From contig RSEE01000024.1 in assembly GCA_003971905.1 (NCBI GenBank), positions 62,001-126,000 on the forward strand: a DNA stretch of 64,000 bases, given 5' to 3'. Both the position numbers and the translations under genes were made by a program. The notes under the pieces are model-generated. The model made no database searches. It saw only the letters and a program-made list of their open reading frames with translations, and was not told the DNA's origin. Of the stretch, positions 8,319 to 62,620 are shown piece by piece; the first letter of the stretch is position 1; each line of letters begins with the position of its first letter. The stretch comes from Moniliella sp. 'wahieum'. Its lineage: Eukaryota.

Positions 8319-10543
8319 ATGCCTGCGCGCCACCCCCACCCCCACCCCCACCATCCACACGCGCTGTCCGAGACGCTGGTGCTCGCCATCTGGGTGGGCG
8401 GCACGCTGGGCATGCTGCGCGACCCCGTGCACGGCTACCGGCCCCACCCCTCCTTCCTCACCGAGGCCCTCCGCACCCAGCCGCGCTTCCACGACCCCTT
8501 TGGCAACTCCATCTTCAGCTGGTCCGACTCCCCCGACCGCTACGAGCAGTGGAGCGGCCTCAACTCCCCCACCGCTCCGGCCCCTCATCCCCGGCCCCGC
8601 CCTCGCCGCAGCCCCCGCGCACGCCCCACCCGCACCCACTCAGCCGCACCACCACCGACCACACCGACCCCACCGACGACGACGACGACACCTCCAGTCT
8701 CCCCAGCACCGGCAGCGAGCACGCCGTCTATCCCATCCACGCCCCCGCCCACCCCGTTCCGACCCCAGCACCAAGACACGGATGCAGCGCTGCTGCGCTC
8801 GGCAAGGAAAGAGCACGAGGCCATGCGCCTCTCCTCCACCGTGTCCGGCGGGCAGGTCAAGCGCGTCTGGCCCCTACGGCCGCCCGATCCAGGTGCGCAC
8901 GTCCACTCTCGATGGTATATCTCTGGTCGACGCTACCCAAGTGGAGGAGCGGGAGATGGCGAGCGCAGAGGGCAAGACGCGTGTGCTGCAGTTTCATCTT
9001 CCTTCGCTTGTCTTGCCTGCTGGCAAGGGGGGCAAGCGAACGCGCTACGTGTGTGGAGTACGATCCGTTGCTCGACTCGTCCGAGATGGGATTTTGACGA
9101 CTACAAGCGCCTGGCGCGGGACATTGGGCTCAACTATGCCCACTTTGACGCGTTTATCGTCTTGCATGGCACCGACACCATGGCCTACACGGCCAGCCTT
9201 GTCGATGCTGTTGGAAAACTTGGGAAAGTCGGTGATTGTGACAGGAGCCCAAGTCCCACTCAGCGAGCTGCGCAACGATGCGATTGAAAATGTGTTGGGC
9301 GCGCTCACCTTGGCTGGCAGTACATCATCCCGAGGTGACGCTCTACTTTGCGTCGCAACTCTTTCGTGGCAACCGCTCCACCAAGGTATCCAACGATGCC
9401 TTGGCCGCGTTTGACTCGCCCAACATGCCGCCGCTCGCGGTGGTCGGGATCGAGATGAGTGTGAATTGGCACCTGGTCCAACGGCCTCGCGAGCTGCGCC
9501 GTTTCCGCGCTGCTACCACCTAAGTGATCATGTGGTCATCTTGCGCTTGGTGCCAGGTCTGTCGCGCGCGGCAGTGCGCGCGCTGCTCGCGCCTCCGACC
9601 AAGGCGCCGTGATCGAAACGTTTGGCGCGGGCAATGCCGGCGCCAGCCTGCTCGACTTGTTTGCCGAAGCTTCGCAACGAGGCGTGGTGCTGGTCAACGT
9701 GACACAGTGCCTGCAAGGAACGGTGAGCGGGATATATGCCGCAGGCAGCACTTGGCTCAGGCCGGCGTCGTCTCTGGCGCCGACATGACGCCCGAGTGCG
9801 CACTGATGAAGCTTGCCTATCTCTTGGCCGATCCCACCTTGGAGAGAGACCAAGTTCGTGCGCTGGTAGGCGCCTCGCTGCGCGGCGAGTTGACGGCCCA
9901 CCCTCCCCAGCTGGAGGGGGGCGAGGCGGAGGCCATGGCGCACCACTTGCCCGGCGTGCAGCAACTGGTGGGGGACATTTTGTTTCCCCCGGCGCGCCCG
10001 GCGCAGCTGCTACTGCGCCTTGCTGCCCCCCGCCCAAGCCCAAGCACCCAAGGGGGATCGCGAGCGCCAGCTGTACCGGCTTGGTCGCTTACCGGCACGA
10101 CGTGCAAGCGGCCGAGCAAGTGGTGCTGCCACTGCTGCTGCGCGGGCCGTCCAAGCGATGGACGAGGCGGCGGCAAAGCATTACTGGACAAGATTGACGA
10201 GGTGCGCAAAAGGGCGCGCTTGCCTGGGGGCGAAGCGATTGGGGGACGGTAGCGTTGGTGGACCAACAATGTGTATTGCACGTGGCGGCGGCGATGGGGT
10301 CAACGAGGATGGTGGAACTGTTGCTAGCCGCGGGGCGAGCGTGCATCTGCGTGACATGCATGGTTTCTCGCCCCTCTTTTCTGCCCTCCGCGGGGGACAT
10401 CAGCAAGTGGCCCGACGGTTGGTGGAAACGGGTGCGTCGTAAAAGACGATGAATCGAGTGTGCTCAATGCTCTCTCCATCAGTCTCCGTCCCGAGGTGGG
10501 CAACAGCTTGTTGGCGTTGGGCGCAGAGACGGATTCGGGATAG
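8319..10543 (+). CDS. Type I L-asparaginase / 60 kDa lysophospholipase with C-terminal ankyrin repeats
   Basis: VGGTLGM, YDPLLDSSEM, LHGTDTMAYTAS, KSVIVTGAQVPL, LFRGNRSTKV, ADMTPECALMKLAYLL and ankyrin-like LHVAAAMG / DMHGFSPLFSA. The end is 10442, or 10543 after correcting one indel. Confidence 0.92.
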
Positions 10544-11177: not shown

Positions 11178-12204
11178 TTAGGCCTTGTCCTGCATCTCGT
11201 CTTCAACGTCGTAAGGCGAAGGCGGCGGATGTTGGGCTTGTTGACCGGCTGGACGGAACATGGTGGAATCAATAGCAAAGTGTCCCATGACAAAGTAGAT
11301 GATCACCACCACGACTTCCATCGCATACTCTAGGACGGCCTTGGTAATCGGTGGGCCCATGAACGGATTGGACGAGAACATGCGTACGGTCACATACGCC
11401 GCTCGGACGGCCATAAAGGGCATAGCAACCGCCAAGAAGGCGAGCAGACGAAGAGGCATGCGGCCAAGCGAGTGCGGCTGACTCTGTTTTTTGGCAAGCA
11501 ACAGTTTCGGTACGCGTTTCGTCACCCCACAGAGCAGAATCAGTGCGATCAGACAGGCGACTAGGGCGCACAGCAGCACATCAGCCGTTTTGATCGTGTC
11601 TGGCAGAGACACATTGGCTTGGAGCGAAAAGGATCCGGCGGGGAGGGTGTTCATGCCAACGATGAGCAGGATCGTTGCAGCCAGCGTGAGAAGGTGGAGC
11701 ACTCGCAACACACCCGCCGGTTTCTCCTTCTTTTTGTTGTTGGTAGGGGTGGGATCCAGGGTGCTGTAGTCATTCAACTGCGACACTGTAGGTTCCACGG
11801 CCCTAGAGAAAAAGGACAGGGAGGCATTGATGAGCCAGGGAAAGCCAATGGACTGGAGAATGAAGCCGGCGATGTTCACGCCCATGTTGCTGTAGTGCTG
11901 GTGGTCGGCTATCACAATGAGAATGTTGCCGGCCAGGCGGACTGAGAGAAGAGAGCACATTCATGGGACGTCAGCTCACGGCTTGGGGCAAAAGAAACGG
12001 TATCCAAAGCCACAACAAAAGGCAAAGAGGTGGTATCACGGACGCGAGAGAGGTGGAACATACCCAGGGAGAAAGAACCAGAAAGATAAACCCATTCGTG
12101 CGGCGGGCACCGTGTTTGACCACGTTAAAGATAGACGCGAGGAGCAAGACGGCATAGATCGCGATAAAGACCTCGTTGATGATCCGAGACGTATGGAGCG
12201 ACAT
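11178..12204 (-). CDS. Fungal multi-pass (about 7 TM) membrane protein of unknown function, DUF7702/RTA1-like
   Basis: ATG at 12204 (MSLHTSRIINEVFIAIYAVLLL) and an intron at 11942-12063 (GTATGT...GCTGAC...CAG). Many hydrophobic helices; motifs VRLAGNIL and MPFMAVRAAY. Confidence 0.75.
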
Positions 12205-12362
12205 TATGGCGAAATGTGGTGTGGGCGCTGCTGTGGACACAGGGATGGGGGATGAAAGGTGTCCAAAGAGAAGCGAAAGAGTGAGTTGGAAGTCGATCCG
12301 AGCGTGGGAGCGTGGGTGGTTGTGCGGAAAAGATACGGATGGGCAGAAAGGAGGCCGGCATG

Positions 12363-12369
12363 CTTTATA
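12363..12369 (-). promoter_or_regulatory. TATA box (TATAAAG) of the membrane-protein gene
   Basis: TATAAAG lies about 160 bp upstream of the ATG and is conserved in the duplicated promoter copy at about 18241. Confidence 0.55.
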
Positions 12370-12663
12370 CCTTGTTGGACACTAGTGTTTTTTTTGCAAC
12401 CAGTGGAGCATAGTTCCTCTGTTGGGCCGGTCGGGGGGAGATCCTCCACTCGAACTGCGCAGCGGTGGTGTCCATCACAAAACAGCCACGGCTGCCACCA
12501 GCCGGCTTTTGGCACTCGCCCCCCATACAGCGAGGCGAAGAGTAATGGCTACCAACACTTACCGACCTTTCCAGGACGGCGAAACTCCGGGGGGTCTTTC
12601 GGCTGAATTGCAGACAGTTATTTTCGGCGTGATTGCATTTACCCCATGTTGCCGAGGTATATT

Positions 12664-13024
12664 GTTCAACGTTCAACGTTCAACGTTCAACAGAGCGTAG
12701 AGCGGTTTGGTTATCAAGAAGTGATCTATTAGTCGACAGGAGAAGCTATCAGTGCATCAGAGCGATTGTGGATTATCGCGTATGAAAGACAAAGCTTTCT
12801 CGGCGTCATCGATCATCCATATTCGTCGTCGTGGTCATGACCGGCCGTGCTGGTTGCGGCGTAATTCTTGCAGGATTTCGTTGAGGACTAATATGGATGA
12901 GTGCGAGGAGCTGTGTGTGCGGGCGCGGCAGAGGTGTGGACTGCAAGTATGAATTAGTGAAAGAAAATGGTGATATAGTGTTGTTCCGCACTCAGTACTC
13001 AACGTTCAACGTTCAACGTTCAAC
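12664..13024. repeat. Two short (GTTCAAC)n heptamer arrays at 12664-12691 and 12999-13024
   Basis: Four and about 3.7 perfect GTTCAAC units, read directly. Confidence 0.85.
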
Positions 13025-13443
13025 ACCGCAGTCTATATACGCAGACACCCATCGTTGGCCGCACAGCCGTTGTCGGTGATACTACTGATACAGACTAATG
13101 GGTCACGTTCGTCCGTACATCGGCCTGATGGGCCTGATGTGTGTGTGCCCCGCCCGGCATATGCTTTTCTTTCCTCTCTCCTGGCACGTTCGTGTGTTCG
13201 TGTGTTCCTTTCTCCCCGTTTTCTCTTTTTTTCCTCTGCTACATCGTCTCTCGACCTCCCCACGGTCGTCCCTCTCTTCATATATAACAGTCTTTCGGCC
13301 ACAGTCTTTAGTCGGGGCACCCGCAACGTTGCCAGAGCCACACTGCCGTGAACGGGCCCACCTATACGCTTAGGAGTGTCCCTTCTATTTTCAGAACTTA
13401 CTGGCAGTGAGGATTTTATTGTCTTTGTGGTTTTCATCTGATT

Positions 13444-16400
13444 TCATGTAGGTAAAATGAGTCTTGGCGCCATCGCGAAAACAGGTGGAAGAAGAGAGGA
13501 CGATTGCAGGCCCCGGAATGAGACGAGTCCCACAGCCTCTGTTGGGAGGAAACTGAATATGATGAGATCCTTAGGAAAAGCATGGCAACACTTTGACGTC
13601 AACCGGCTTAACTTTGTCCGAGAACTCGCATCGGCCTGATCGACGTCCTGCTGCAACGCAACCACTTCAGCCCGCACCACTCCCTTTTCCAGAGCCCCAG
13701 ACACCAACATGACCGTACTCTTCACATCATTCATTCCACACGTCTCTCCCTCTGAATCTGCAGTGCGCAACCAGGAGAAGAAGGTATACTGCTGCAAGAG
13801 CATCGAGAGGGCCATGATGCTTCCTTGGCTTTGCAGCAGACCAAGCAAGGAGCGGAAGCGCGATTCCATCGTGCCCAACGTAACCATGACTCCCATCGTG
13901 CCCGGCCTGGGCAGATCCAGCCAATGAGTCCAGGTCGTGCTTCCTTCGGTTTTGCGCGGATCACAGGATGCGCAGCGCTTCCCCGTTGCGTGACCGCTAG
14001 GTACGCACCGCGAGGGCATCCTCCACACGCGAGACTGTGGCAGTTGAGAATGGGTTTGCGAGTGTGGTGGGGGCTGTGTTTGCAACTGTAGTGAATTCGA
14101 TTGGCGCTTCTTCGTACGAAGAGTCAGAAGCATCATAGGTGGAGTCATAGTCGCGCGGGTCAGACTGGGGCGGGCACGACACAATTCCATAGCGCTGCAG
14201 CGTGTCCACCGAAAAGCCGGAGGATCGCGTCGCGTTCCCATTCCGCAAACACCTCATTGAACGAATGCGGCAGCTTATCCTGCACGGCAAACAACTTGCG
14301 ACCCAACCGGTCCATATCAATCTGGTCATAGTGCAGGCCAAACGAGTATCCAACCGGACACGAATATTTTGGGGATCGAACTTGGCTGGTGCCAGCAGAC
14401 GCACCACTTTGTCCCGCGCGGCTTCGGACAAGTACTTTTCGAACGCAGATACGGTCCCCGTCACTTCGAGCGGTACGCCACGAAGGAGAATGAGGTGGGC
14501 GGAGATAAAGGGGGAGGAAGTGGTGGACCAACCGCGCTGGTATTGCTGGAACAGATACCAAACCAGGCACTTGTACTTGCCATCAAATGCTTCTCCGTGC
14601 AGCACCGTCGGCGCGTGAGTCCAGTCTTGCAACTTGGCCAGCCCCGTATCCGGGCAAAAGGGGACGCCATCAGGTGCCACCTCGCTCAGCTGCCTGGCCG
14701 GGTCCCACGCCGATACCTCATCCAATGTTGCTAACGATTTACTGTCTTCGTCCGTCCACAGCGATGGGTGCAGCACAACCGACTCCAAGCATTCTTGCGC
14801 AAAGCGGCGCTGGGAAGCGACCGGGAACAAGCTCACATACTTCTCCTTCTCCGCCATCTCAAGGAATTGGCAAAATTGTCCAATCGTAGGATAGTCCCAT
14901 CCGTGCAACTTGTTGTGCTGCCGATGGAGATACGTAGGTTGCGATTTCACCCTTCCTTCCAAACGCTGGTTTTGGAGAATGCGCACCAACAGCGCGAACT
15001 TGGACTGCACCCTTATCCGATTGATGTGAAACGAAGAATCGCCGTCCTTCTGCCACAAACTGATATAGTAATTCGGAACGCTCAGGCGAGGATCTGCCGT
15101 CGGCTGGGGCAGCGGCATTGTCTCTGCAGGACGGGAAGCGTGTGACGACGAGTGGGAGGACTGCCGCCAAGACGATTCGAGCATGAATTTAGGTGTAAGT
15201 GGTTCAATGTTGTCCAGGGAGCGGCGCCATGCGACTGGGGCGGGACGCTCCACGTTACCAGGGGCTGACGGCAGGCCAAGAGGAGGAACGGGTTGAGACG
15301 GGGTGTCAGCATTGGCGCTGGGGTGCATCCCTTGACCCGAAAAAAGCGCTGAAGGTGTCGCATCGGGAAAGGCTTGCGAAGGGCAGGCAAAAGGCTAGAA
15401 GCTTCAGTTGGGGCCTCTTGGGTAGAGAGGGAGGTTGGAACGGTCTGACAGACCCCCAATGCGAAGCAGGGGAGATGTGCGAGCCATCAGTTGAACCTGG
15501 TTCCCGGTTTGACGAGGCCTTGGTGAAGTCATCAACGCCGGATGAGCGAATCGCCGCCAAACCTGCCGCGATGGCCTCAGACTCCGTGGGGAGTGGGCTA
15601 TTGGGGTTTGCAGCGAGCATGGTCCGACATGCTTTCACGATGTCATTCTCTTCCACCAGCTCAATCCACGCGTATCCATATTGGGAGGACTGACCCGTGG
15701 TTACCAACCCAATTCGCTCCGCCCCGGCCACGTAGGAAGTCCAGTTGTGCGCTCCCACGCGGGCGAAGGCGTGGTAGCTGTAGCTGTTCAGGATCAAGGC
15801 AGTTATCTTAGACTGCCGTTGTTTCGTCGGCCCCGCCCCTGGGTCGTCCTTCCTGATATCCGGGTCGATGGGCTGGTTGAGTAGCATGGAAAGCAATGGT
15901 GCATACTGAAACAGTCCTTTTTTCAGCTCATTTACACCCAGTTTGGTCGACGGCGACGAAATCTGGAAGTTGGCTGGAGGATCCTGGGCTAACGTGGAGG
16001 AGACCGTAGAGGGAGATGCATGGGCATCCACTGGCTGCGGAGGTCGACAAGGGCACCGTGGTTGGGATGGGAGTCAGACTTAATTTGCAGCACATCTTCC
16101 CGGAATCGGAGGACCTCATCGGCATTGGCCCGCAGCTCAGGGGAGGCGGAAGCGGGTACAATCAACAGGATTTGGTACCCGCGTCCGCGGAGGGAGGGCA
16201 GATTGTACGCCAAGTCCCCTTTGCCCGAGATAATTACGATGCGAGCGGGGGGGGGATGGTCGAGGGCAAAGGACATCATGTCCCCTGCCAACATAAAGTC
16301 AGGCTTCTTCTCCAGTCTCCCATGCGGTGTGTCGACAAGGATAACACCGCCTCGTTGGATCTCCTCGCACACCTGGGCGAGACGCTGAGACGGAGGCCGG

Positions 16401-16949
16401 ACCTCCGGGTTGGAGAGTCCCTGGTAGGCCCGGAATTGGACGATGAGAACAGGACGCGCGTGGAAGTCTCCGGCAGGGACTGCGGTAGACTGGACGATGG
16501 ATCGAATGGCACGGACAATGGTGATGCCGTCAATACCTGAGGGTGGTTGCACATTCTAATGGGATAGCGGGAGAGGGGAAGGACGGGTTAGTCCACGGTG
16601 TATGTAACGCTAAAGAGGACATGGTATCGGCCATGGTCTTGCTGTGGGCTGGATGCCCACATGGCCATGTTGTGCGTACCTCAATATCCCAAAAGATGGC
16701 GCAGTTGATGGGAGCGGATGGGGTGGGGACGGGTGTAGAGACGGGGGGTTGGTGATGGCAACCGATGTGCCCCCTCGCCTATCAGGAATGGATGCCCGTG
16801 ATGGTTGCAGGTATCGGGAGGAAGAAGAGGGGGGGCGTAGGAGTCGGCTTGGCGCGGGGAGAGAGTGGAGAGCCAAAATGAGAGTAGATTACAACTATCG
16901 TAGCGGACAAGACGACACAGAGCGTAGTCACAAGGATGATGAACGCCAT
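13444..16949 (-). CDS. NYN copy A: N-terminal hydrophobic anchor + MARF1/Limkain-type NYN domain + four LOTUS/OST-HTH-like repeats
   Basis: MAFIILVTTLCVVLSATIVVIY, then CAIFWDIE|intron 16556-16679|NVQPPSG, IVQFRAY, GVILVDTPH, PDFMLAGDMMSFALDHPPPARIVIISGKGDLAYNLPSLRGRGYQILLI and ELRANADEVLRF. Continues through ORFs 15306-16031, 13997-15328 and 13444-14241, joined by indels. Confidence 0.85.
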
Positions 16950-17649
16950 ACGGGGGGAGGAGGAGGAGGAGAAGGAGAAGGAGGTGGTGGTGGTGGTGGT
17001 GATGGGAAGAAGGAGATGGAGCGGAGAGAGAGGCGGCGACTTTAACCCAAGGGGGGGGGGGAGGGGGCGAGGGGCGGGCGATTCGACGAGGACGCTGCGC
17101 AGGGCGCGCGCAGCCTCGGCTGAGAGAGGCCGCGCCAGGAGCGATTCAGACGAGGGGGGGCTGGCAGCGTTTGAGGGAGTGGGGGTTGCGAGTGGCACGG
17201 CGACGAGTAGCCACTTAACAATCACTCGGCCCAGACGGTATCCTTGCCGGTGGTGGGCATACGTACGCTCAAGAATGTCTGTCCCTGCCAAGTACCGTAC
17301 ACGCAGCGCACATCCTGCGAGTTATATATTCGCCTTATACCTAAGCGATGCTCGAAATTACATCGTGGTACGTTTTGTGCGCATCCAACCCACGTCTTGC
17401 TGGTCACCGGTCACGCGACCAGTGTCGGCGTATCTCCGCCGCTTCTGCGCCGCCTCTCCCAGTGCATGCGCACTGCCCCCGTGAGCACTCTAAGTCAACG
17501 AAGACAAGCTCTCCAGAGAGAAGAGGGGGGGAGAAGGTGATGGATCTCTTCCAAGAGAAGAGTCCGTTAGGGCAGAACATAGGGGAGAGACGGATAGAAC
17601 AGCGCGATGTGTGATGCGTGATCAGCTGCATGTATGATGGCGCTGAGGA

Positions 17650-18438
17650 CATGGCAACGTTCCGTGTGCGTCCCGGATGACTGTGGCAGAAAGACTGTGT
17701 TGGTATAAGCCACCTGCAGGTAAGCCGAAAGACCCCCGTGGGCTTCGCTGTCCTGGCAAGGTCGGTAAGCGTTGGTAGTCATGACTCGTCGCCTCGCTGG
17801 GGAGTGCCCGTGGATTCGAACCAGTACCGCAAGCCGGCTGGTGGTATAGCCGTGGCGCGGTTTTGTGATGGGCACTATGACCGCTGCGCAGTTCGAATGC
17901 GGAGGATGCCCTCGCGTCTCCCAAATTCCCTTGGGCCCAACAGAGGAGCTGTGCTCCACTGATTGCGTAGAAACATATTAAGTGGCGTGTAAGGCAAAAT
18001 CTGATGGTAACTAAGAATAACATTGTACCCGCGAGAGGTCATCCTAATATACTTATACGCAAATATACTTATACGCAAAGCACAGGCAAAAGAAGAAAGG
18101 TAGCTCAAAGAAAAGAGCCTTGCAGGTCAGACCGTCAAGTCGGTTCGCCCCCAAGCAGGTCAAACCAAACTAGTATTGAACCAAACTGATGAGTATCGAC
18201 CCAGGTGTGACAAAACACGATGGTGTCCACAACCAAGCCGTATAAAGCATGTCGGCCTTTTGCTCATCCGCATCTTTCCGCACAACCACCACGCTCCCAC
18301 GCTCGGATAGACGACTAACTCACTCTTTCGCTACCCTTTGGACACCTCTCATCGATCATCCCCCATCCCTGTGCCATCCACCGCAGCGCCCACACCACAC
18401 TTGCGCCATGATGCATGATGTTGCTCTATATACCTCTG
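17650..18438 (+). pseudogene. Inverted duplicate of the promoter, 5' UTR and first codons of the membrane-protein gene, truncated by the LTR
   Basis: Homology to 12185-13335 includes TATAAAG and the ATG region, and ends abruptly at the TG that starts the LTR at 18439. Confidence 0.75.
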
Positions 18439-19314
18439 TGTCATGGGGGGGGGTCCCGAGGGGGGACCCCCCTGTAGTTTATTAGGAGTAAACGTATAAA
18501 CCCTTGGACCGGTCAATCGGTGTCTCGTGCGTTAGGTCCTGCTCCAGATCCTGGTTGAACCGAGCGGGTGTAGAGGCGAGGGAGAGATCCTCTAGTTTGG
18601 GTGGCTGCCTGCGTGCAAAGGCCGCAGTCCAGACCCTCCGAGGTAGGAGCCGCGTACGTAGGTCGTTAGACCAGCTGAAGGGGTCCAGGAGCTCCGAAGT
18701 TACTCTGTTCCTCGCAGCGTTCACTCGGTACGCTGTAGTAGGCGGGAACAGACAGAGTCCTAAAGAATAGCAAGCACTACTGATGAGAGTAACCGTGGAT
18801 TGCATCAGTGCACTCGACGTAAGTCGTGAACTCGTAAGCGTAAGCGTGGTAGAAGGCTGAAGCTAGTTGAATGGCGAGAGAGGAACTGGTAGTCGGGGAG
18901 ACCAAAGATAGGAGACAGGATGGTCGACAAGGAACACAGCTAGCAAGCCTTAGACATGGCTGCTTACATACAGCAGAAGGAACCAGGCCTCAAGTGCCTC
19001 ATGACAGGTATAGACAGAATGCGGGGCACTTCCCAGAGAGGTAAAGACTAATGCACAGCCCTTGCTTCCCAAGGTGCTGACGCTGCGTAGTCGAGCGCAG
19101 CAGGAAGGGTTCCGACAAGACTGGACGCAATGGGCACAAAGAATCGTACCGATAAGCCCATGCGGCCATGGCGGGCCGCGGATGATATCCGCAGCAAGGA
19201 TAAGGTGTCGACTGGCTCTCTCTCGCTAGTCTAACCGGACTGACGCGTGTTGGGCTGAGATGTCTACGACACGCGGGGCTCAGCGTCCGGAGATAACCGG
19301 AGCGCCCCGTAACA
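18439..19314 (-). mobile_element. Solo LTR of an LTR retrotransposon (about 876 bp)
   Basis: TG...CA termini with an imperfect terminal inverted repeat (TGTCATGGGG vs reverse complement of CCCCGTAACA = TGTTACGGGG). Both ends coincide exactly with truncation points of duplicated host sequence. AATAAA sits near the minus-strand 3' end; no recognisable coding content; no target-site duplication. Confidence 0.7.
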
Positions 19315-20010
19315 GGTTGCTAGCACCGCCCCCCCGTCTCTACACCCCCTCCCACCCCATCGGCCCTCATCAACTGCGCCATATGTTGGGATATTGGGGT
19401 ACGCACAACATAGCCATGTGGGGATATATCCCACGGCAAACACCATGCTCAATACCATGCCCTCTTTTGCGTATACCACATGTACTAAAACGTCCTTCCC
19501 CTCTCTCGCTATCCCATTAGAATGTCCCACTACCCTGTGGTATCAACGGCTTCACCCTCGTCCGTGCCATTCGTTCCATCGTCCAGTCTACCCCGGTCCC
19601 TGCCGCAGACCTCCACGCGCGTCCAGTCCTCATCGTCCAATTCCGGGCCTACCAGGGACTCAACAACCCGCAGATCCGGCCTCCATCTCAGCGTCTCGCC
19701 CAGGTGTGCGAGGATATCAAACGAGGTGGTGTCATCCTCGTCGACACGCCGCATGGGAGACTGAAGAACAAGGCAGATTTTATGTTGGCAGGGGACATGA
19801 TGGCCTTTGCCCTCGGTCATCCGCCCCCGCTCGCATCGTAATTATTTGGGGCGACGGGAACTTCTTGTACAACCTGCCTCCCCTCCGCGGACGCGGTACC
19901 AAGTCCTGTTTTGATTGTACCTACTGCCGCCTCTCCTGAGCTGCGGGCCAATGCCGATGAGGTCCTCCGGTTTCGGGAAGATTGCTGCAGATCACGGCTA
20001 ACACCCCCCC
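19315..20010 (+). pseudogene. NYN copy C: 5'-truncated fragment of the NYN gene
   Basis: Starts immediately after the LTR with no start codon or anchor, and keeps the same intron (19399-19520). Motifs are degenerate (WDIG, IWGDGNF; branch point ACTAAC changed to ACTAAA). Homology ends just after the NYN domain. Confidence 0.8.
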
Positions 20011-20110
20011 GGCACAGGCCACACTGTTTCAGCAGCTTTCAGCGCTCACCCCACCCCAAGTAGCTGAATTACATACCAGACATAGCAGGCATACCAGACA
20101 TATCAGGTAC

Positions 20111-21622
20111 TTAGCCTCGCCTAGCCGACCTAAGCTTGTCGTGCGCGAACCTGGACCAGCGATAAAGCGAATGGCTCGCGCCTTGACTCGCGCCCGAGGG
20201 ATACCTATGCCGACTGGCCACCCCACGATCAAACGTGCGCGGCGGGGAAGTCGGAACGCAGATGGAAGGTCCAGTTGCCCCGGTGGGCCGCTGGCTCGGG
20301 CGGCACGCGCGAATTAGTGTGGGAGGTGGTACGTGCGTGGGAGGTGGTACGTGCGTGGGAGGTGGTACGCGCGTGGGACTTGGTGCGGGCGTGGGACTTG
20401 GTGCGGGCGGGCGAGGCAACGGTAGCGGTAGCGGCCGAGGCCAAGGCAGAAGCAGAAGCAGGTGCTGGAGGAGGACCGGAAGCACTCGAACTACGAGGAC
20501 GGTCCGGAGTCGATCGAACGGAAGGAGAGCGCACACTGCCACCCGTCGTCCGGACCGGCGGGCGCGAGTCAACGTCGGCCGGAGGGAAGAATCTGAGGCG
20601 GTACGGCGCGCTACCGCATTGTTGGTCAACACGCTAGCTAGGAGCGGAGGTGCGTGCAAGCGCGTCGAGGCCGAAGCAGGCGGCGGAGGCGCAGCGGGCG
20701 ACGCAGGCGGACGGGATACCGAGGTCGTACGAGAAGCTGCCACAGGCGTGGTCAGCATCGGAGGGGAAGCAGGCGCCGCAGTGCCCGGAGGGGCAGGTCC
20801 AGGACGACGAGGTGCCGCAGGTGGAGGAGGCGGCGCAGATGCCGCGGGAGGAGGCGCATGCGGCGGGAGGAGGCGGGGGCGCAGGACTCGCCCTCCAGGA
20901 GGCGGAGGAGGCCGGGCAGGCATCCCCAGTCGCCCCGAAGGCGAGGCGGGCGCGGCGCGCAGCAGGAACGCTCGGCAGCGAAGGCAGGCAAATGGCTTGG
21001 GGCCGGGCTTGGGAGGAGGCGGGCGAGTGAGGGTCGAAGGTCGCGGCGGAGCAACGGGTGGACGAGAAGGAGGCGTAGGGCCGGAGGGGCGGTGCTCGTG
21101 CGGTGCGGGGGGCGCGCGACCGGGAATGGGTGGAGCACGAGCCGGGGCAGGCGGCAGGCACAGGCGGTGGGGGTGGGCCGATGGCGCGGCGGGAGCAGGC
21201 CCCCAACAGCGGCTTGGGGGCACCCGGGGGCTTGGGGCCGACCCAAACGGCTTGGGCGGCGGGCGGGCCGGCGCGGAGGGGCTCTCGTCGCGATGAGCAA
21301 TCATGGTGGACGCCCCCGGCGGCCGGTGGCTCGGAGCTTGGGCATCCCGCCGGCGAACAGCCCAGCAAGCGGCTGGGGAGTAGGAGGATCGTCCTCGGCA
21401 GCAGCGGTCATGGGCCTGGCAGGAGCAGCGCGCCGGGGATGGGCGAGCGCCACCAGGAGGCCGCGGCGGTTTGCCCAGTGCGGGGAGTCTGCCGGTGTTG
21501 CCTGCGCCGGCTGAGCCAGAGACTATGCCGCCGCCTCCGGTGTTGGGGCCGGAGCGGTCGTTGGTCTGGGTCTTCTTGAGTGTGCGCCCGTTCTTGATGG
21601 CGGCCTGGAGGGCGGAGTCCAT
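20111..21622 (-). CDS. VRP1: Verprolin / WASP-interacting protein
   Basis: N-terminal WH2 (ALQAAIKNGRTLKKTQTNDRS), a second WH2-like GLFAGGMPKLR, a very long poly-Pro region and a C-terminal WTF...DFP...YPSG motif. 3' end approximate. Confidence 0.88.
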   Translation of the reverse strand: MDSALQAAIKNGRTLKKTQTNDRSGPNTGGGGIVSGSAGAGNTGRLPALGKPPRPPGGARPSPARCSCQAHDRCCRGRSSYSPAACWAVRRRDAQAPSHRPPGASTMIAHRDESPSAPARPPPKPFGSAPSPRVPPSRCWGPAPAAPSAHPHRLCLPPAPARAPPIPGRAPPAPHEHRPSGPTPPSRPPVAPPRPSTLTRPPPPKPGPKPFACLRCRAFLLRAAPASPSGRLGMPARPPPPPGGRVLRPRLLPPHAPPPAASAPPPPPAAPRRPGPAPPGTAAPASPPMLTTPVAASRTTSVSRPPASPAAPPPPASASTRLHAPPLLASVLTNNAVARRTASDSSLRPTLTRARRSGRRVAVCALLPFDRLRTVLVVRVLPVLLQHLLLLLPWPRPLPLPLPRPPAPSPTPAPSPTRVPPPTHVPPPTHVPPPTLIRACRPSQRPTGATGPSICVPTSPPRTFDRGVASRHRYPSGASQGASHSLYRWSRFAHDKLRSARRG

Positions 21623-22222
21623 AATGGCGGTGGTGGTGGTGGTGGTAGTGGCGGGGGAGACGCGGTGGCGGTGGCTGCGCTTTGCTGCGCACTGGGGCAG
21701 CAGGAGAGGGCACGGGGGCAGTGCGCGTGCGCTGGGAGAGGCGTCGGAGAGCGGCGGAGATAAGCCGGCGCTGGTCGCGTGACCAGCAAGGCAAGGGTTG
21801 GGTGCGCACAAATGTACTTCGATGGGTGCTCAAGTGTCGCTCGGGTAGCAGGCGAATATAACTCGCGGGATATGCGCTGGGTGAATTGAGGTACTCGGTA
21901 GGGACGGACAACTGTGAGCGTACGTTGGACGTTGCTCAGCACCGACAAGGATGCCGTCTGGGCCTATAGCGATTCTTACAATGGCTACTCAGTCGTCGCC
22001 TCGCCATTCGCAACCCACTCACTCTCTTCAAACGCTGCCAGCCCCCCTCGGCTGAATCGCTCCTGGCGCAGCCTCTCTCTCAGCCGAGGCTGCGCGCACC
22101 CTGCGCAGCGTCCTCGTCGAATCGCCCGCCCCTCCCGCCCCTCCCGCCCCTCCCCCTGCGTTGGGTTAAAATCGGCACCTTCTCTCTGTGCTCCATCACC
22201 TTCCTCCCACCACCACCGGCTT

Positions 22223-22554
22223 CACCACCACCACCACCACCACCACCACCTCCTCCTCCTCCTCCTCCTCCTCCTCCTCCTCCTCCTCCTCCTCCTCCTC
22301 CTCCTCCTCCTCCTCCTCCTCCTCCTCCTCCCTCCTCCTCCTCCTCCCCTCCTCCTCCTCCTCCTCCTCCTCCTCCTCCTCCTCCTCCTCCTCCTCTCCT
22401 CCTCCTCCTCTCCTCCTCCTCCTCCTCCTCCTCCTCCTCCTCCTCCTCCTCCTCCTCCTCCTCCTCCTCCTCCTCCTCCTCCTCCTCCCCTCCCCTCTCC
22501 TCCCCTCCTCCTCCTCCTCCTCCTCCTCCTCCTCCTCTCCTCCTCCTCCTCCTC
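22223..22554. repeat. (CAC)n followed by a roughly 300 bp (CCT)n microsatellite in the 5' leader of NYN copy B
   Basis: Read directly; ends a few bases before the ATG at 22562. Confidence 0.97.
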
Positions 22555-22561
22555 CCCCAGC

Positions 22562-25500
22562 ATGGCGGTAACCATCCTCGTGACCTCGCTCTGTGTAGCC
22601 GTCTCCGCTACGAGCGTTGTAATCTACTCTCATTTTTTGCAATCCGCTCTATCCCCGCGCCCAAGCCGACTCCTACGCCCCCCCCTCTCTTCTTCCTCCC
22701 GCAACCTCCAACTACCATGGAGGGGAGCCATGTCTGATAGGCGAGGGGCACATCGGTTGCCAGCACCGACCCCCCGTCTCTACAACCCTGTTCCCACCCC
22801 ATCGGCTCCCATCAACTGCGCTATCTTTTGGGATATTCAGGTACGCACAACATACCATGTGGGCATCCAGCCCACAGCAACACCATGCCCAATACCATGT
22901 CCTCTTTTGCGTATACTGTGGACTAACCCCCTTCCACTCTCCCGCTATCCCATTAGAATGTCCCACCACCCTCAGGCATTGATGGCATCACCATCGTCCG
23001 TGCCATTCGCTCCACCGTCCAGTCGACCGTCCTTGCTGTAACCTCCAGGCGCGTCCACCCTCATCGTCCAATTCCGGGCCTACCAGGAACTCTCCAACCC
23101 GCGGGTCCGGCCTCCGTCTCAGCGTCTCGCCCAGGTGTGCGAGGAGATCCAACGAGGTGGTGTCATCCTCGTCGACACGCCGCTTGTGGGACTGAAGAAC
23201 AAGACTGACGTTATGATGGCAGGGGACATGTCCTTTGCCCTCGACCATCCGCCCCCGCGCGCATCGTAATTATTTCGGGCGACAGGGACTTGGCGTACAG
23301 TCTGCCCTCCCTCCGCGGACGCGGGTACCAAATCCTGTTGATTGTACCCGCTTCCGCCTCCCCTGAGCTGCGGGCCAATGCCGATGAGGTCCTCCGATTC
23401 CGGGAAGATGTGCTGCAAATTAAGTCTGACTCCCATCCCAACCACGGTGCCCTTGTCGACCTCCGGCAGCCAGTGGATGCCCATGCATCTCCCTCTACGG
23501 TCTCCTCCTCCACGTTAGCCCAGGATCCTCCAGCCAACTTCCAGATTTCGTCGCCGTCGTCGCCGTCGACCAAACTGGGTGTAAATGAGCTGAAAAAAGG
23601 ACTGTTTCAGTATGCACCATTGCTTTCCATGCTACTCACTCACCAGCCCATCGACCCGGATATCAGGAAGGACGACCCAGGGCGGGGCCGACGAAACACG
23701 GCAGTCTAAGATAACTGCCTTGATCCTGAACAGCTACAGCTACCACGCCTTCGCCCCGTGGGAGCGCACAACTGGACTTCCTACGTGGCCGGGCGGAGCG
23801 AATTGGGTTGGTAACCACGGGTCAGTCCTCCCAATATGGATACGCGTGGATTGAGCTGGTGGAAGAGAATGACATCGTGAAGCATGTCGGACCATGCTCG
23901 CTGCCAAACCCCATAGCCCACTCCCCACGGAGTCTGAGGCCATCGCGGCAGGTTTGGCGGCGATTCGCTCATCCGGCGTTGATGACTTCACCAAGGCCTC
24001 GTCAAACCGGGAACAGGGTTCAACTGATGGCTCGCACATTTCTCCTGCTTCACACTCGGGGTCTGTCAAATCGTACCAACCTCCCCTCTCTACCCAAGGG
24101 GCACTAACGGAAGCTTCGACCCTTCTCCCTGCCCCTTCGAAAGTGAATACCTACGCGCCCCCTTCTGGGCTTCGTCTAGGTCAAGGGCTGCGCCCCAGCG
24201 CCAATGCTTACACCCCGTCTCATCTCGTTCCACCTCTTGGCCCGCCGTCTGCCCCTGGTAACATGGAGCATCCCAGTCCAGTCGCATGGCGCCGCTCCCT
24301 GGACAAAATTGAACCATTTACACCCCCAAATTCATGCGCCTACCGACTTGGCAGCAGCCGTCCCACTCATTTTCACACGCTTCCCGTCCTGCCACGTCAG
24401 AGCGAATGCCGCTTCCACAGCCGACGGCAGATCCTCGCCTCAGCGTTCCGAATTACTATATCAGTTTGTGGCAGAAGGACGGCGATTCGCCGTTTCACAT
24501 CAATAAGAAGGAGGTGCAGTCCCACTTCGCGTTGTTGGTGCGCATTCTCCCAAAACCAGCGATTGGAAGGAAGGATGTACTCGCGCCCTGATTATCTCCA
24601 TCGGCAGTACAACAAGTTGCACGGATGGGACTGTCCTACGATTGCACAGTTTTCCCAATTCCTTGAGAAGGCGGAGAAGGAGCATTGTGATGTTGTTCCC
24701 AGTCGCTTCCCAGCGCAGCGTTCCGCAAGGATCGTTCGAGTCCGTTGTGCTGCACCCATCGCTGTGGACGGACGAAGATAGTAAAGGCTTGGCAACATTG
24801 AATCAGGTATCGGCGTGGGACCCGGCCAGGCAGCTGAGCGAGGTGGCACCTGATGGCGTCCCCTTTTGGCCGGATACGGGGCTGGTCAAGTTGCAAGACT
24901 GGACTCACGCGCCGACGGTGCTGCACGGAGAAGCGTTGACGGCAATACAAGTGCCTGGTTTGGTACCTGTTCCAGCAATACCAGCGCGGTTGGTCCACCA
25001 CTTCCTCCACCTTTATCCTCACCCATCTCATTCGCCTTCAAGGCGTACCGCTCGAGGTGACGGGGACCGTGGCTGCGTTCGAACAGTACTTGTCCGAAGC
25101 CGCGCGGGACAAAGTAGTGCGTCTGCTGGCACCATTCAAGTCCGATCCCCACCATATTCCTGTCCGGTTGGATACTCGTTTTGGACTGCACTATGACCAG
25201 ATTGATACGGACCGGTTGGGTCGCAAGTTGTTTGCCGTGCAGCACATGATGCCGCAATCGTTCAATGAGGTGTTTGAGCAATGGGAACAGGACGCGATCC
25301 TCCGGTTATTTTCGGTGGACACGCTGCAGCGGTATGGGATTATGTCGGGCCAGCCCGATCTGACCCGCCCGAGCCTGGCCCCCCGACGACGGTTCCGACT
25401 CTTCGTACGAAGAAGCGACAGTCGAATCCGCAACAGTTGCGACCACAGCCGCCACCACCGTCGCAACCACAGTCCCATCAGCCACAACAGTCTCGCGTAT

Positions 25501-25932
25501 GGTGGATCCCCTCACTGTGCGTACCTACCAGTCGCGCAACGGGATGCGCTGCGCATCCTGATTCGCGTAACGGAAGGCAGCACGACCTGGACTCATTGGC
25601 TGGATCTGCCCAACAAGCTGGGCACGATGGGCGCCATGGTCACGACGGGCACGATGGAACCGCGCTTTCCGCACCCTGCTTGGTCTGCTGCAAAGCGAAG
25701 GAAGCATCAAGACCGTCTCGATGCTCTTGCAGCGGAAAAACCTCTTGTTGTTGCGCACTGCAGACTCACCAGATGGAGGAATGGAGGACGTGAAGGTATG
25801 GTCGCGTTGGTCTCTGCGGCTCTGGAAAAGGGGTTGGTGCGGGCTGAAGTGATTGCATTGCAGCAGGACGTCGATCCGGCCGATGCGAGCTTCTCGGGCA
25901 AAGTCAAGCCGGTTCACGTTGCCCTTCTTTGA
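22562..25932 (+). CDS. NYN copy B: hydrophobic anchor + NYN domain (intact SGDRD) + four LOTUS-like repeats
   Basis: MAVTILVTSLCVAVSATSVVIY reads in frame to CAIFWDIQ, then intron 22841-22956 and IVIISGDRDLAY. Collinear with copy A throughout. Homology to A resumes at about 26230-26356 after an insertion of about 300 bp, so the true end may lie further 3'. Confidence 0.85.
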
Positions 25933-27657
25933 CTGGGATCTCTGGTACAACAGGAAACATAGCCCCCCCCCGGGGGGGAAGGGGCTGGAATGAACACCAC
26001 GCAAGTACATTACGTTGTCGCAATCGTGAGCTCACACCAGCTGCGGAGATTGTGGATCGCTGGGCTCGACCTGTTTCTTTTTTTTGCCATTTCTCCTTAT
26101 TACTTCATTCATCCCCCCTTTTTTGGTGGGGTTGCATCAGTCGTACGAGGCGCTCCTATCCCCATGGATTGACCATTTGGTCTGAGTTCGATGATGGGGG
26201 CACATATGACAATATGTTATTCGTAAAAAATCAAGTTTCTTCTCAACAAGCTGTGGGTCTCTTCTCATTACGGGGTCTGCATCGTCATCTCTTTTTCCGC
26301 CTGTTTTCGCGATGGCGCCGAGACTCCTTTTACCTTACTTTAGAAGAAAACCACAAATATATCATTTGCGCTCCAGCGGAATGGCCCAGACATAGCCGGT
26401 GCAGTCGTCGACTACAAGTAAATTGCGCTCACCCTTCAGCTGAAGCCCGTCGGCCAATCTATACTACTGTCACTCGATCGGCTCTCGCAGTGCGCCAGTG
26501 GGGCAGCTGCACGTGCCGTGTGGCTCTCAGGGAACGGGCGTCGGGTGCCCCGCCCCGCCGCGGACGCCTGACAGACGCCGGCCGTGTCGGCCTCGGCCGC
26601 ATGGGCCTGGGTGGAGGTGATGCGTTGCGCAACCATGGCCGGTGGCCGTGGGGCGCGGGGAAGCTGGCGCCAACCAACAGGGCCATGGCGTGCATGATCA
26701 GCCAGTATCCCGCATAGTCGGCCACGGCGGCACGGGCATGGGCTTGAATGGGGACACGTTGGGGACATCGCAGGTAGTAACCAGCCACATCGCCATCAGC
26801 GATACGGTCGTAGCGAGTAACAATTGCGGGTCGCTATGGATGACAGCGCCCTGGCGCTGGGCAAGGACTCAACCCGGTGGCCAGCGGCATTTGCCTGTGG
26901 TACAGAGCAAGTCATAGTCTAACTGGGGGACAAGTGGCAAGCAGTACAAGTCAAGGATGCATTCAATTTGGACTGTGGAGGGAGGGAGTCGGACCCGCTT
27001 CTCACTCCACGCCTATATCACCGCAGCTTCCTGGACGCGCCAGCCAACTCAACCCACCCAGTCGCAGGCTCGAGGAACTGAAACGCTCAGGCGAGCGGAC
27101 CATGCTTGGCGTCGCGCCGCTGTCAACGACCAGCTTGTGAAGCGCAGACGCAGTGGAGGGTGGTGGCAACTCCTGTAACAGGGCTCCAGCGCGTTCTAGT
27201 ACTGCGATCAGGGGGCGGAAAAAACGGGGGCTACTAGGCCTTGCGCCCTCGCGGTAGGGCTTGTTGACGTGGGAAAGCCGGAGCTTGTAAAACCAGAGGT
27301 AAAGGGCAGTACGTCAGCATATATAAGCCAGGCGAGTACATCGGGGGCGGAGCATTCCTCCTGCGTGGGCGCAGCGGGCCAACTGCTGTGGCCAGATGGG
27401 AAGTATTGGAGTGATTCAAACTGCTCAACGTCGACATGTGTTCTTTCAACTCCGGATGCAGTGACCAGCATTGGGCCTCTCTGCGGGTCTGCCGTTGGGT
27501 GAAGATGGCAGTACCCCCTTACGCTCTGCGCCCCCCATTTCCCGTGTGCGAGGGAACAGTCTTGGTGACGAGCACTGTTTCCTCGATGTTCAGAATTGCA
27601 GCGTTTTGGCTCCATAATTGGGTTCTTCTCTAAGTTGAATGACCCTTTTTCTACGGT

Positions 27658-28675
27658 TTACTTGACCTCCACATGTTTTTTACTATTCGACTTGGACTTC
27701 CGCTTCGACTTGCATATGCTAAACCTCCAAGTTGACTCGACCTCTATCGGTGGGCAGGTCTATTAGCATGGCACGCAACGGTGGGCATCAACTGAAAACA
27801 CTTCCTACTCCTGCTATGCATACTTGGAGTACCGTGGGTAGGGCGGGAGCCAGACGTCATCTGCAGCACACTTCCCGGAACCGGAGGACCTCATCGGCGT
27901 TGGCGCGCAGCTCCTGGGAGGCGACAGTGGGTACAATCGCCAGGACTTGGTACCCGCGTCCGCGGGGGGGCAGGTTGTACGACAAGTCCCCGTCGCCCGA
28001 AATAATTACGATGCGAGCCGGGGTGGATGGTCAAGGGCAAAGGCCATCATGTCCCCTGCCAACATGAATCAGCTTTGTTCTTCAGTCCCCCATGCGGCGT
28101 GTCAACGAGGGTCACGCCACTTCGTTGGATCTCTTCGCGTATCTGGGAGAGACGCTGAGATGGAGGCCGGATCTGCGGGTTGGGGGTTCCTGGTACGCTC
28201 GGAATTGGACGATGGAACGGGACGCGCGTGGCGGTCTCCGGCAGGACCGGGTAGACTGGACGATGGAACGAATGGCAACGGAGGTGAAGCCATCGATACC
28301 AGAGGGTGGTTGGACATTCTGATGGGATAAAGAGAGGGGAAGGACGGATTAGTACATGGTATACCCAAAAGAGGGCATGGTATTGGGCTTGGTGTTGCTG
28401 TGGCCTGGATCCCCCATGGCCATACTGTGCGTACCTCAATATCCCAAAGATGGCGCAGTTGATGGGGGCCGATGGGGTGGAAGGTGCAGAGACGGTGGGT
28501 TGGTGCTGGCAACCGGTGTGCCCCCTGGGCTATCAGGAATGGCTGGCCATGATGGTTGGAGGGGGCGAGAGGGAGGAGAGGCGGGGGAGTGCTGAGAGTG
28601 ATAATGGAAATAGAGTACGATCGTCGTAACGGAAGTGACCGCGGAGACCGCAGCAGCGAGAGCGATAATCCCCAT
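27658..28675 (-). CDS. NYN copy D: hydrophobic anchor + NYN domain (intact SGDGD) + short basic tail, no LOTUS-like repeats
   Basis: MGIIALAAAVSAVTSVTTIVLY, WDIE|intron 28319-28434|NVQPP, KNKAD and IISGDGDL. A putative second intron at 27744-27823 (GTATGC...GCTAAT...TAG) gives KVESTWRFSICKSKRKSKSNSKKHVEVK*. Several indels must be assumed. Confidence 0.7.
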
Positions 28676-29267
28676 GCCGGGGGAGGACGTGATGGTGGTG
28701 GGTGGTGGGAGGAAGGAGATGAAGCGCAGAGAGAGGCGGGGACTTTAACCCACTGACACAGGGTGACAGGCGGGAGGGGCGGGTGATGAGGGCTCTGCGC
28801 TGGGCACACGCAGCCTCCGCTGAGAGAGGCCGCGCGCCAGGAGCCATTCAGCCGACGGGGCTGGCACTTCGAAGGGAGTGTGAGTGGATTGCGATTCGTG
28901 AGTCGACGGCTGACTAGCTCTGACTAGTCACAGAGTGTATACTTGTGGTATGAGTACTACTTATGAGTACTCACAACTGACATGTCCCAGTATCTCCCGA
29001 GTACCAGAGTACTACTAGAGCATATCCTGATAGGCCTGAGGCCTGATGAGTTATATTGTTCGTCTACCCCAAGTACCCCTGGAAGTGCGTTTTAGGTCCA
29101 GCCAACCAACGCTGGTGTAGCTGGGTTCCGTGGTGGGTGCGATAAAGCAGCACAAAGGTGGGTGGTCTATCCACAAGCCGGGAAGGGCAAGCATCTAGGA
29201 GGAAAAAGAACATATGGGGCTAGAGTGATGCATGTATGTAGATGGCACGGACAGATCAAGATCAAGA

Positions 29268-30297
29268 TCAAGGGCATGGGGTGCGGTACTTGCGCACGAT
29301 GGCATCCACGCCCACCTTGCGCCAGATGGGCAGGGCAAGGGAAGCGAGGAGCACCTTGGCCGGGTCGAGGAGACCGTTGCCCGGCTGGATGCGACCGAAC
29401 AAGGCACGGAACAAGTCGGTTTGCCAATCGGACGTGATGAAGAAATGGCCTGCCTCGAGCCGCGCACCATCCGTTCCGCACACACGGCCGGTGTCAAGGG
29501 CGAATCGGCTTGCTCGATTTCCCGCAGCACGGCCGGCTTGGTCGTTTGCTCCACTTCAAACCCGGGACTGAGAATGGTGGCGGGGAAGTAACAGTGGACC
29601 GAGATGTTGTACAAGAGGAACTCACTCCGTAGCGTCTCGGCCAAGCCTGGTCACAATGCTGCGAGTGAGTGGAAAGAAGAACGAGGGCGGAGCAGAGGAA
29701 GAGGAAGAAGAAGAGGAAAGGGTACGTACCCCGCAGCGCAGCTTTCATAGGCTGGTACTGTGCGTAGCCTACCAAGCCACAAAAGGCGACCATGGAGGAC
29801 ACGAGGACGATGGAGCCTTGGACGTGTTCGTTGCGCATGCGCGTCGCACTCGCATGCACGGTAGCCAAGGTGGTGAGGTAATTGGTCTGGATGCCCTGGT
29901 GAAAGTCGGCCGGACGCATGTCGAGGAACATGCCCGGCTTGGCGCCGCCAGCGGCACAGATGACCGTATCGGGCGCACGCGGGAGCGCCGCCACCACCTT
30001 CTCTGCGCCTTCGAACGACGACACGTCCCCGACGACAAAGAGGGCGGCGGACCCGAGGCGAGCGCACGCACTTGCTCGCACGCAGCCTGCAGCTGGGGTT
30101 CGCGGCGCGCCACCAGCACCACTTGGGCGCCGGCGTGGGCGAGTTGCTGGGCCAGGGAGGCCGAGGCCCTGGGAGGCGCCGGTGATGAGCACCAGCTGGC
30201 CCTTGGGGGACCAGCGGCGGCGGGGCCAGAAGGCGCCGGCCAGGACGGCGGTGGTGGTGGCGACAAGCGCGAGGCCGAGCAGCAGCGGGGAGGACAT
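29268..30297 (-). CDS. TSC10: 3-ketodihydrosphingosine reductase (SDR family)
   Basis: N-terminal TM, ITGASQGLG, CAAGGAKPGMF, YAQYQPMKAALRG|intron 29647-29729|LAETLRSE and FPATILSPGFEVEQTTKP. Confidence 0.9.
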
Positions 30298-35964: not shown

Positions 35965-36766
35965 TTGGGGGGGCGGAAGGGGGGGAGGGAGGGCGGGGCA
36001 AGCGGAGGGCGGGAGGGTGGGCGGAGGCGCGCGCTTTATACGGTCCACGACGGGCAGGCGAATGGATCAGGTGGGGGATGCCGACAGGCACGTGGACGGC
36101 CATCCAATTATCCAAGCGGCAGATGCTGCTCCGGGCCCTCTCAGACACCTGCCGCTGAGCTGTGCCCTGCCGTGCTGGTCGGATGCCATCCCGCCTGTCT
36201 GGGCAGCGTCATCGGCGCTGTGCGTGATGCAAGGGGATACTGGCCCTTGCATGATCGGACGCATGCATGATGCCTGATACATACCCATATTGCATGCTCT
36301 AGCACGACGAGCGCTTAGCGCTTACCACTTGCTGCTAGACACTCTAGCCACTCTACGTTGATCGATTGTCATTCACTAGTCACTCCATATTCAGCCCAGC
36401 CTAGGAGACTGGCGGTGGGCTAGGTAGGCCTTATCGATGGGGTAGCACTTTGGGGCTGCTCAACCGGACAGGCAGCAGCAGCTGACACTGGCGCCCTGCT
36501 GGAGGCCAACCACGCGGACAGAGCTTGTTATGAGTCGGATGGCCTTCTGGGCTTCCACATGCTCGTATGTATCAGGCGTAGGTAGGTAGTATGCCGGTGT
36601 ATGACGTATCCCTTGTACATTGGACGCACACGCTTCCTGCTTCACCTCACCCGCTCACCATCCAATATCCATCCGGCTTTCTGACGCCGAGCATGTGGAT
36701 GCCCAGCGCACGGTGCAATCAATATTCAATCCGCTCCAACGCCCCATCCACGGGCCAGACCAATCC

Positions 36767-62619: not shown

Positions 62620-62620
62620 A

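Follow-up and report, generated by a model that had tools for sequence, protein, structure and literature searches.

A cluster of four gene copies encoding a MARF1-type NYN domain in Moniliella sp. 'wahieum': a candidate case of local birth-and-death duplication

Background

MARF1 (Limkain-b1), described in mouse and human, combines an NYN domain with RRM and LOTUS domains. The mouse protein requires the aspartates D178, D215, D246 and D272, and no longer functions in vivo when it carries the substitution D272A (PMC6217404). Fusions of a PIN-like NYN nuclease to OST-HTH/HTH RNA-binding domains are reported to be common in fungi, and lineage-specific expansions of NYN proteins have been reported in plants (Matelska et al. 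2017, PMC5499597). Here we describe a cluster of four related gene copies, A to D, encoding an NYN domain of this type. They lie in a 64,000-nucleotide (nt) stretch of the genome of Moniliella sp. 'wahieum' (assembly GCA_003971905.1, contig RSEE01000024.1, positions 62,001 to 126,000 of the forward strand), which is referred to as the window and in whose coordinates all positions are given.

Several features associate these copies with MARF1. The FWDxEN and S-x-D motifs can be aligned, the NYN domain of MARF1 is the nearest solved structure, and the order of the apparent domains is the same, an N-terminal nuclease being followed by winged-helix domains. By contrast, the fungal proteins carry an N-terminal hydrophobic anchor and have no Pfam match to RRM or OST-HTH, the sequence similarity is low (E = 5e-6 for a single sequence), and the fungal locus contains four copies, one of them with a lysine at the position of D272. 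With respect to the NYN.1 and NYN.3 clusters (PMC5499597), a profile search of the PDB matched only MARF1, which is a member of NYN.1. Arabidopsis DNE1, a DCP1-associated endoribonuclease with NYN and OST-HTH domains, appears by its description to follow the same two-module logic, but it is a cytoplasmic partner of the decapping complex, and the abstracts on it mention no membrane anchor. The family to which the window copies actually belong is a set of NYN proteins from the Ustilaginomycotina, such as KAE8220382.1 of Tilletia indica, XP_029742749.1 of Sporisorium graminicola and XP_025370354.1 of Ceraceosorus guamensis. These share the order of anchor, NYN domain and repeated winged-helix-like motifs over 830-1000 amino acids; the window copies differ from them in having lost some residues that are invariant in the family. 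A literature search, with subscription journals outside its coverage, found no paper on this family.

Results and discussion

The reading that we favour, at about even probability, is that birth-and-death duplication of one conserved fungal gene has left two live paralogues (A and B) and two relics (C and D). When positions 12000-30000 were compared with the window by BLASTN, four related stretches were found. A (13596-17026, reverse strand) and B (22485-25919, forward strand) form an inverted pair with 87.6% identity over 3480 columns; C (19315-20006, forward strand) is 84-85% identical to A, B and D across approximately 700 nt; and D (27831-28880, reverse strand, approximately 1050 nt) has 78-84% identity to the other copies. 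As genes, copies A (13444..16949, reverse strand, ATG at 16949) and B (22562..25932, forward strand, ATG at 22562) are full length, the order in A being an N-terminal hydrophobic anchor, a proline-rich linker, the NYN domain, winged-helix-like domains and a C-terminal region. B has no stop in the codon-aligned reading, and its DNA homology to A runs on to 26357. Copy D (27831..28675, reverse strand, ATG at 28675) consists of the upstream or promoter region, the membrane anchor and the NYN domain, its upstream homology extending to 28918. Copy C (19312..20010, forward strand) is an NYN-only fragment lacking the promoter, start and anchor, with an ATG at 19260 that is out of frame as assembled; both C and D lack the C-terminal two-thirds of the gene. 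This supports the initial annotation of the locus, made from the sequence alone, which had noted four homologous copies within 15 kb with differing architectures and active-site states (those of the latter being considered below) and had called the process local birth-and-death, a fair description.

The placement of an intron further ties the copies together. Each of its two exon-intron junction motifs has precisely four occurrences in the window and none in 100 shuffled sequences; therefore the same intron can be placed in A (16556-16679, reverse strand), C (19399-19520, forward strand), B (22841-22956, forward strand) and D (28319-28434, reverse strand). In every case it starts with GTACGC, contains a CTAAC-like branch site, ends with YAG and splits the motif WDI(E)|N (WDIE|N in A), as the initial annotation had maintained. 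The open reading frames (ORFs) of the two closest relatives of the cluster, P0001 (693 amino acids, 60% identical in the NYN exon) and P0005 (953 amino acids, 48%), begin precisely where the intron lies and continue without a change of frame across the NYN domain and the blocks that follow it.

On sequence evidence, the domain shared by the copies is an NYN PIN-like RNase domain of the MARF1 type. Exon 2 of copy A (15992-16555, reverse strand), which is a single open frame, matches the Pfam NYN family (PF01936) with an E value of 1.2e-11 and 45.7 bits, above the cut-off of 24.2 bits, as does a piece of B (E = 4e-6, 27.8 bits). C scores 16.4 bits, under this cut-off, and the piece of D that was tried, the frame of which is broken as assembled, gave no match to PF01936. 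NYN is the sole Pfam family in the homologues, being matched in all ten that were scanned. The structures nearest to copy A alone are those of the MARF1 NYN domain (6fdl_A, E = 5.1e-6; 5yaa_A, E = 1.4e-5), and a 16-sequence profile of the family likewise matched 5yaa in the PDB (E = 9.2e-17), with no other nuclease at E ≤ 1.

An exhaustive HMMER search, in which each 90% cluster is represented by a single record, found 666 related proteins at E ≤ 0.001. Another homologue search, made with a 465-amino-acid ORF and with the NYN exon, gave no matches, which reflects the reach of that tool and is no indication that relatives are missing. The top full-length relatives are 830-1000 amino acids long, with the NYN domain near the N-terminus, and the named members, from Tilletia, Sporisorium, Ceraceosorus and Parajaminaea, are annotated as hypothetical or as NYN domain-containing. 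To judge from these sequences, the parent family looks like a conserved but uncharacterised protein found across the Ustilaginomycotina. The N-terminal hydrophobic segment, a putative anchor, has a Kyte-Doolittle mean over 19 residues of 2.87 in A, 2.28 in B and 2.27 in D, with none in C, and 9 of the 12 homologues examined have a segment with a mean of at least 1.6. Searches by tblastn with P0001 and P0005 found the conserved blocks that follow the NYN domain to be collinear in A and B; C and D are without them.

The first of the putative winged-helix domains of copy A (15558..15944, reverse strand) was modelled with AlphaFold2 (predicted local distance difference test score, pLDDT, 84.3). 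Structural alignment of the model by VIA-align gave a Z score of 7.0 with the MARF1 LOTUS domain 5yad_B, covering all 71 of 71 residues, and, with all or nearly all of the chain aligned, 6.7 with the LOTUS domain of Tejas and 6.6 with TDRD5. The model is matched no less well by generic winged helices (Z scores of 7-8), hence it is only compatible with a LOTUS domain. A Foldseek search of the PDB with this model found no match at E ≤ 0.001, the Pfam family OST-HTH (PF12872) was not matched by the ORFs of the window or by ten homologues, no RRM family was found in the Pfam scans of window ORFs or homologues, and a protein atlas consulted on the OST-HTH/LOTUS question gave a weak lead (0.78). The description of the genes as MARF1-like is supported for the NYN half by the Pfam and PDB searches; for the LOTUS half, it is compatible with the winged-helix model, and there is no OST-HTH match.

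The copies differ in the residues of the putative active site. All four retain the aspartate of the FWD motif and the WD..N motif. The latter reads WDIEN in D, and B (WDIQ) and C (CWDIG) differ at a position outside the four catalytic aspartates. In the S-x-D motif, B (SGDRD), D (SGDGD) and C (WGDGN) keep the aspartate aligned with MARF1 D272, C having a tryptophan for the conserved serine and an asparagine for the following aspartate. Copy A, the alignment of which with MARF1 begins after D215 and D246, has SGK where S-x-D is expected, its lysine (codon 16222-16220) aligning with D272; this results from two substitutions in one codon of a noisy assembly. As the aspartate is kept in B, and the changes in B avoid positions conserved in the family, B is probably the active enzyme. 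Since lysine replaces an essential aspartate in A, this copy is probably either a catalytically dead RNA-binding paralogue or one that is just starting to decay.

At 16419-16420 (reverse strand), A and C have a glycine where B, D and the family have the invariant glutamate of an AYxE motif. This distribution is at odds with the main tree of the copies and may reflect either gene conversion or changes made in parallel.

In the NYN region, 24 informative sites support the tree (A,B)|(C,D), against four for each of the alternatives. This topology, together with the fact that the homology of C and D stops at the same 3' point, fits their origin from a single truncated ancestor, of which C (NYN only) and D (anchor and NYN) would be partial duplicates. 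The divergence between A and B is uneven: the block 15433..16038 (reverse strand) of A is 97.8% identical (588/601) to 23466-24083 of B, compared with 84-92% elsewhere, and includes exact runs of 82 and 91 nt. These features suggest that the block is probably a gene-conversion tract between the inverted copies. Repeat-induced point mutation was considered as a source of the divergence and rejected, as the transition to transversion ratio is 0.9-1.5 and the TpA/ApT and (CpA+TpG)/(ApC+GpT) indices equal those of the flanks.

Duplication has also included the upstream flank. Positions 16953-17483 match 22271-21711 (78% identity) and 28701-28918 match 22214-21984 (75%), so that the upstream region of A (16950..17483, reverse strand) is homologous to those of B and D. 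That of B (21711..22561, forward strand) is shared with the 5' region of a divergent WH2/verprolin-like gene (20111-21829) that sits between the copies. A (CCT)n-type tract of approximately 370 nt (22189-22560) directly precedes the ATG of B, and is far shorter before that of A (approximately 16952-17006).

The most serious alternative is that this is a cluster of pseudogenes, in which no copy other than A is or recently was functional. Decaying relics of segmental duplications would then be represented by B, C and D, and perhaps by A as well, and a large share of the frame breaks would be genuine. We regard this as possible, if on balance doubtful. It would readily account for the differences between A and B, comprising 344 substitutions (transition to transversion ratio 0.9) and approximately 65 indels, mostly of 1-2 nt and most not multiples of three, and for the observation that every copy changes frame relative to its homologues. 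However, the rate of such changes is not above the indel noise of conserved single-copy genes in the window. A frameshift-aware alignment of the bleomycin hydrolase gene (5990-7400, reverse strand) with its nearest homologue, P0157, has 388 of 441 residues identical (88%) and no stops, and yet contains 13 frameshift events, ten of 1 nt and three of 2 nt, of which 11 are deletions and for which introns have no space. The best named matches of this protein, in Tulasnella and Rickenella, are 41-42% identical, and another relative is 72% identical by BLASTP. The asparaginase gene (9090-9865, forward strand) has at least three frame switches and the MYST acetyltransferase gene (approximately 44130, reverse strand) one, with consecutive segments of the Pfam profile falling in different frames over overlapping nucleotide ranges. 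Between A and B, there are 21 gaps of 1-2 nt in 5110 coding nt (8 in A and 13 in B), a rate of 0.0041 per nt versus 0.0097 in bleomycin hydrolase.

Frame breaks of one or two bases are therefore at the level of the assembly indel noise and are uninformative on the integrity of these genes: as the conserved bleomycin hydrolase, asparaginase and MYST genes show the same breaks, they cannot decide whether a copy is intact. The strict proposal that all four copies are frameshifted pseudogenes was dropped for the same reason. Conversely, long ORFs in the flanks were rejected as proof of a clean assembly, being chosen for their openness in GC-rich DNA that keeps wrong frames open. At one C-run, at 16255 (reverse strand), A has one C more than B, C and D and is the sole copy that is in frame at this point. 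Either the same homopolymer error has arisen repeatedly in the other three copies, or they truly share a 1-nt difference, in disagreement with the (A,B)|(C,D) tree.

Tests that are independent of small indels point to coding constraint on A and B. In 826 aligned codons with 216 differences, no nonsense codon is found, compared with the 5.7-6.5 expected under neutral change with the observed spectrum (P = 0.0015 analytically; P = 0.005 in 5000 simulations). The ratio of nonsynonymous to synonymous substitution rates (dN/dS) between them is 0.63, nonsynonymous sites having changed significantly less often (Fisher P = 0.003). Among coding indels of at least 3 nt, five of six are multiples of three (P = 0.018), rising to eight of nine (P = 0.001) if three 3-nt indels private to D are added. 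Finally, where P0001 and P0005, taken as outgroups, are decisive, A keeps their residue at 20 sites and B at 18, which implies that the protein of B has not degraded further than that of A. Each of these results argues against decay, with which the equal divergence of intron and exon between A and B (92.2% and 91.7% identity, respectively) would agree.

The individual lineages are less uniform. Private coding changes in the NYN region were polarised by the other three copies and compared with neutrality. Copy A has 8 synonymous and 7 nonsynonymous changes (omega approximately 0.30, P = 0.02) and D has 13 and 18 (omega 0.48, P = 0.03), both differing significantly from the neutral expectation; B, with 4 and 17 (omega 1.46), and C, with 8 synonymous and 25 other changes (omega approximately 1.07), do not. 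The difference between A and B in this ratio is not significant (Fisher P = 0.07). The changes were also mapped by eye on the family alignment. The 15 private amino-acid changes of B in exon 2 fall in none of the approximately 46 columns that are at least 90% conserved, a further point against its decay, limited by the mapping having been done by eye. Among the few changes of A are those at the invariant Lys171 and Asp201; the changes of C affect at least five conserved columns (Asp188, Ser199, Asp203, Ala205 and Gln156) and those of D at least three (Leu220, Pro229 and Ala205). Copy C evolves neutrally. The signals from D are mixed, this copy having a promoter, an anchor and an NYN domain with what appears to be the full acidic set. 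The initial annotation had foreseen that all copies but one might be decaying neutrally; this is not what is observed for B, and may be so for C.

On the favoured reading, inverted and partial segmental duplications would have expanded a single conserved gene locally in this lineage, with A and B still behaving as coding sequence and undergoing gene conversion with each other. The predicted product of the family is a single-pass membrane-anchored protein in which an NYN endoribonuclease domain of the MARF1 type precedes several winged-helix (LOTUS-like) domains. If these act as their counterparts in MARF1 do, RNA would be held by the winged helices and cut by the NYN domain, and the N-terminal anchor may tie this activity to a membrane.

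A number of observations weigh against two live paralogues and a tethered enzyme. The 4:17 ratio of changes in the NYN domain of B (omega approximately 1.5) fits neutral decay, and, if B alone were neutral, approximately three nonsense codons would be expected, such that finding none would have a P value of only about 0.05. In the NYN exon (approximately 615 nt), A has no small indels versus four to seven in each of B, C and D. The matches to HECT, Gaa1, DUF7702 and short-chain dehydrogenase/reductase (SDR) domains are unbroken, and the noise is uneven along the window; because several nearby domains are without breaks, the local noise is possibly lower than assumed and some of the breaks are possibly real. 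A itself lacks the family-invariant Lys171 and has lost Glu136 together with C. The hexamer TGATAG at 16779-16784 (reverse strand), following the anchor ORF, is in frame with the ATG in A only, as assembled; it is also present between the anchor ORF and the NYN exon in B and D, and in A it could be truly out of frame or lie within an unrecognised intron. The mechanism of a membrane-tethered RNase, for its part, is drawn from homology. The neutral appearance of the NYN lineage of B, the excess of indels in B, C and D over A and the fact that the local noise is not independently measurable, to which the loss of the aspartate in A and the truncation of C and D can be added, are the reasons for which a cluster of pseudogenes is retained as an alternative.

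A second alternative is that proposed in the initial annotation, namely that the locus is an RNA-level conflict or defence system, directed at transposons or mycoviruses or serving nonself recognition or as a toxin-antidote pair, in which the part of decoy, regulator or antidote would fall to the copy with a dead nuclease and to the short ones. Local expansion with differing architectures and active-site states is what such a system might produce; dN/dS between A and B is fairly high, and the NYN domain of B changes fast at variable positions. There are also precedents, as MARF1 restrains retrotransposon RNAs (PMC6217404), and a role as effector toxins has been suggested for NYN domains in Rhizophagus, large NYN expansions being reported from plants (PMC5499597). 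Nevertheless, relaxed constraint after duplication accounts for the same numbers, and in the NYN region of the four copies no lineage has an omega significantly above 1. Furthermore, no transposon or viral domain is found within the cluster, none of its 22 spacer ORFs matching any Pfam family, and the parent family looks conserved across the Ustilaginomycotina. The step to a conflict system is neither supported nor contradicted by these data, and we consider it unlikely.

Less probable still is an arrangement in which the cluster would form an RNA-surveillance module. Here B, and perhaps the short D, would be the tethered active RNase, with A, its nuclease dead and its RNA-binding winged helices kept, serving as decoy, regulator or antidote, and gene conversion would maintain the similarity of the inverted pair. 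This would make the cluster a fungal counterpart of the control of transposons and RNA by animal MARF1, arranged like a toxin-antidote pair.

That the four copies result from misassembly of the haplotypes of one gene, or from noisy long reads of it joined as fold-back chimeras, is highly improbable. The assembly is clearly noisy and A and B are an inverted pair, but most of their divergence consists of substitutions (344, compared with 65 indel events, at the transition to transversion ratio given above). It also appears shaped by selection, in that nonsynonymous sites have changed less, stops are absent and the tree is clear (24:4:4), and the copies differ in their flanks, lengths and orientations.

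The surroundings of the cluster are, as first described, those of ordinary genes, encoding ribosomal protein L18A, bleomycin hydrolase, asparaginase, a short-chain dehydrogenase, a TRIP12/HECT ligase, a MYST acetyltransferase and Gaa1. Copy A is flanked by two copies of an unclassified repeat of 410-700 nt with 73-81% identity, the left at 12202..12613 (forward strand) and the right, which is inverted and approximately 245 nt longer, at 17714..18413 (reverse strand). The right copy carries a motif, GGTTCGAATCC, that resembles a tRNA T-arm, so the repeat may be a tRNA-derived element; neither Rfam nor ARAGORN has a match in it. The solo long terminal repeat (LTR) that the initial annotation had reported here is unconfirmed, LTR ends not having been looked for.

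In the Rfam search, only a tRNA at 62.5 kb was above threshold, the region 12-19.4 kb containing two matches at the level of chance. This tRNA-Val(AAC) (62524-62620, forward strand, 97 nt) presumably contains an intron and lies in the 3' part of the region of the Gaa1-like gene. A 600-amino-acid ORF at 34409-36208 (reverse strand), labelled as a sedolisin, matches the pro-kumamolisin activation domain alone; the S53 peptidase domain was found in no frame piece of this ORF, which could be due to frame noise, introns or divergence of the domain.

Conclusions

In this assembly, frame breaks are unusable for calling pseudogenes, and claims about the integrity of genes in this genome need polished sequence first. 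If A and B are both live, they form a natural pair, of which one member looks catalytically competent and the other is without a key aspartate. Such a pair could help to reveal what the MARF1-type RNases of this uncharacterised fungal branch, with their membrane anchor, do.

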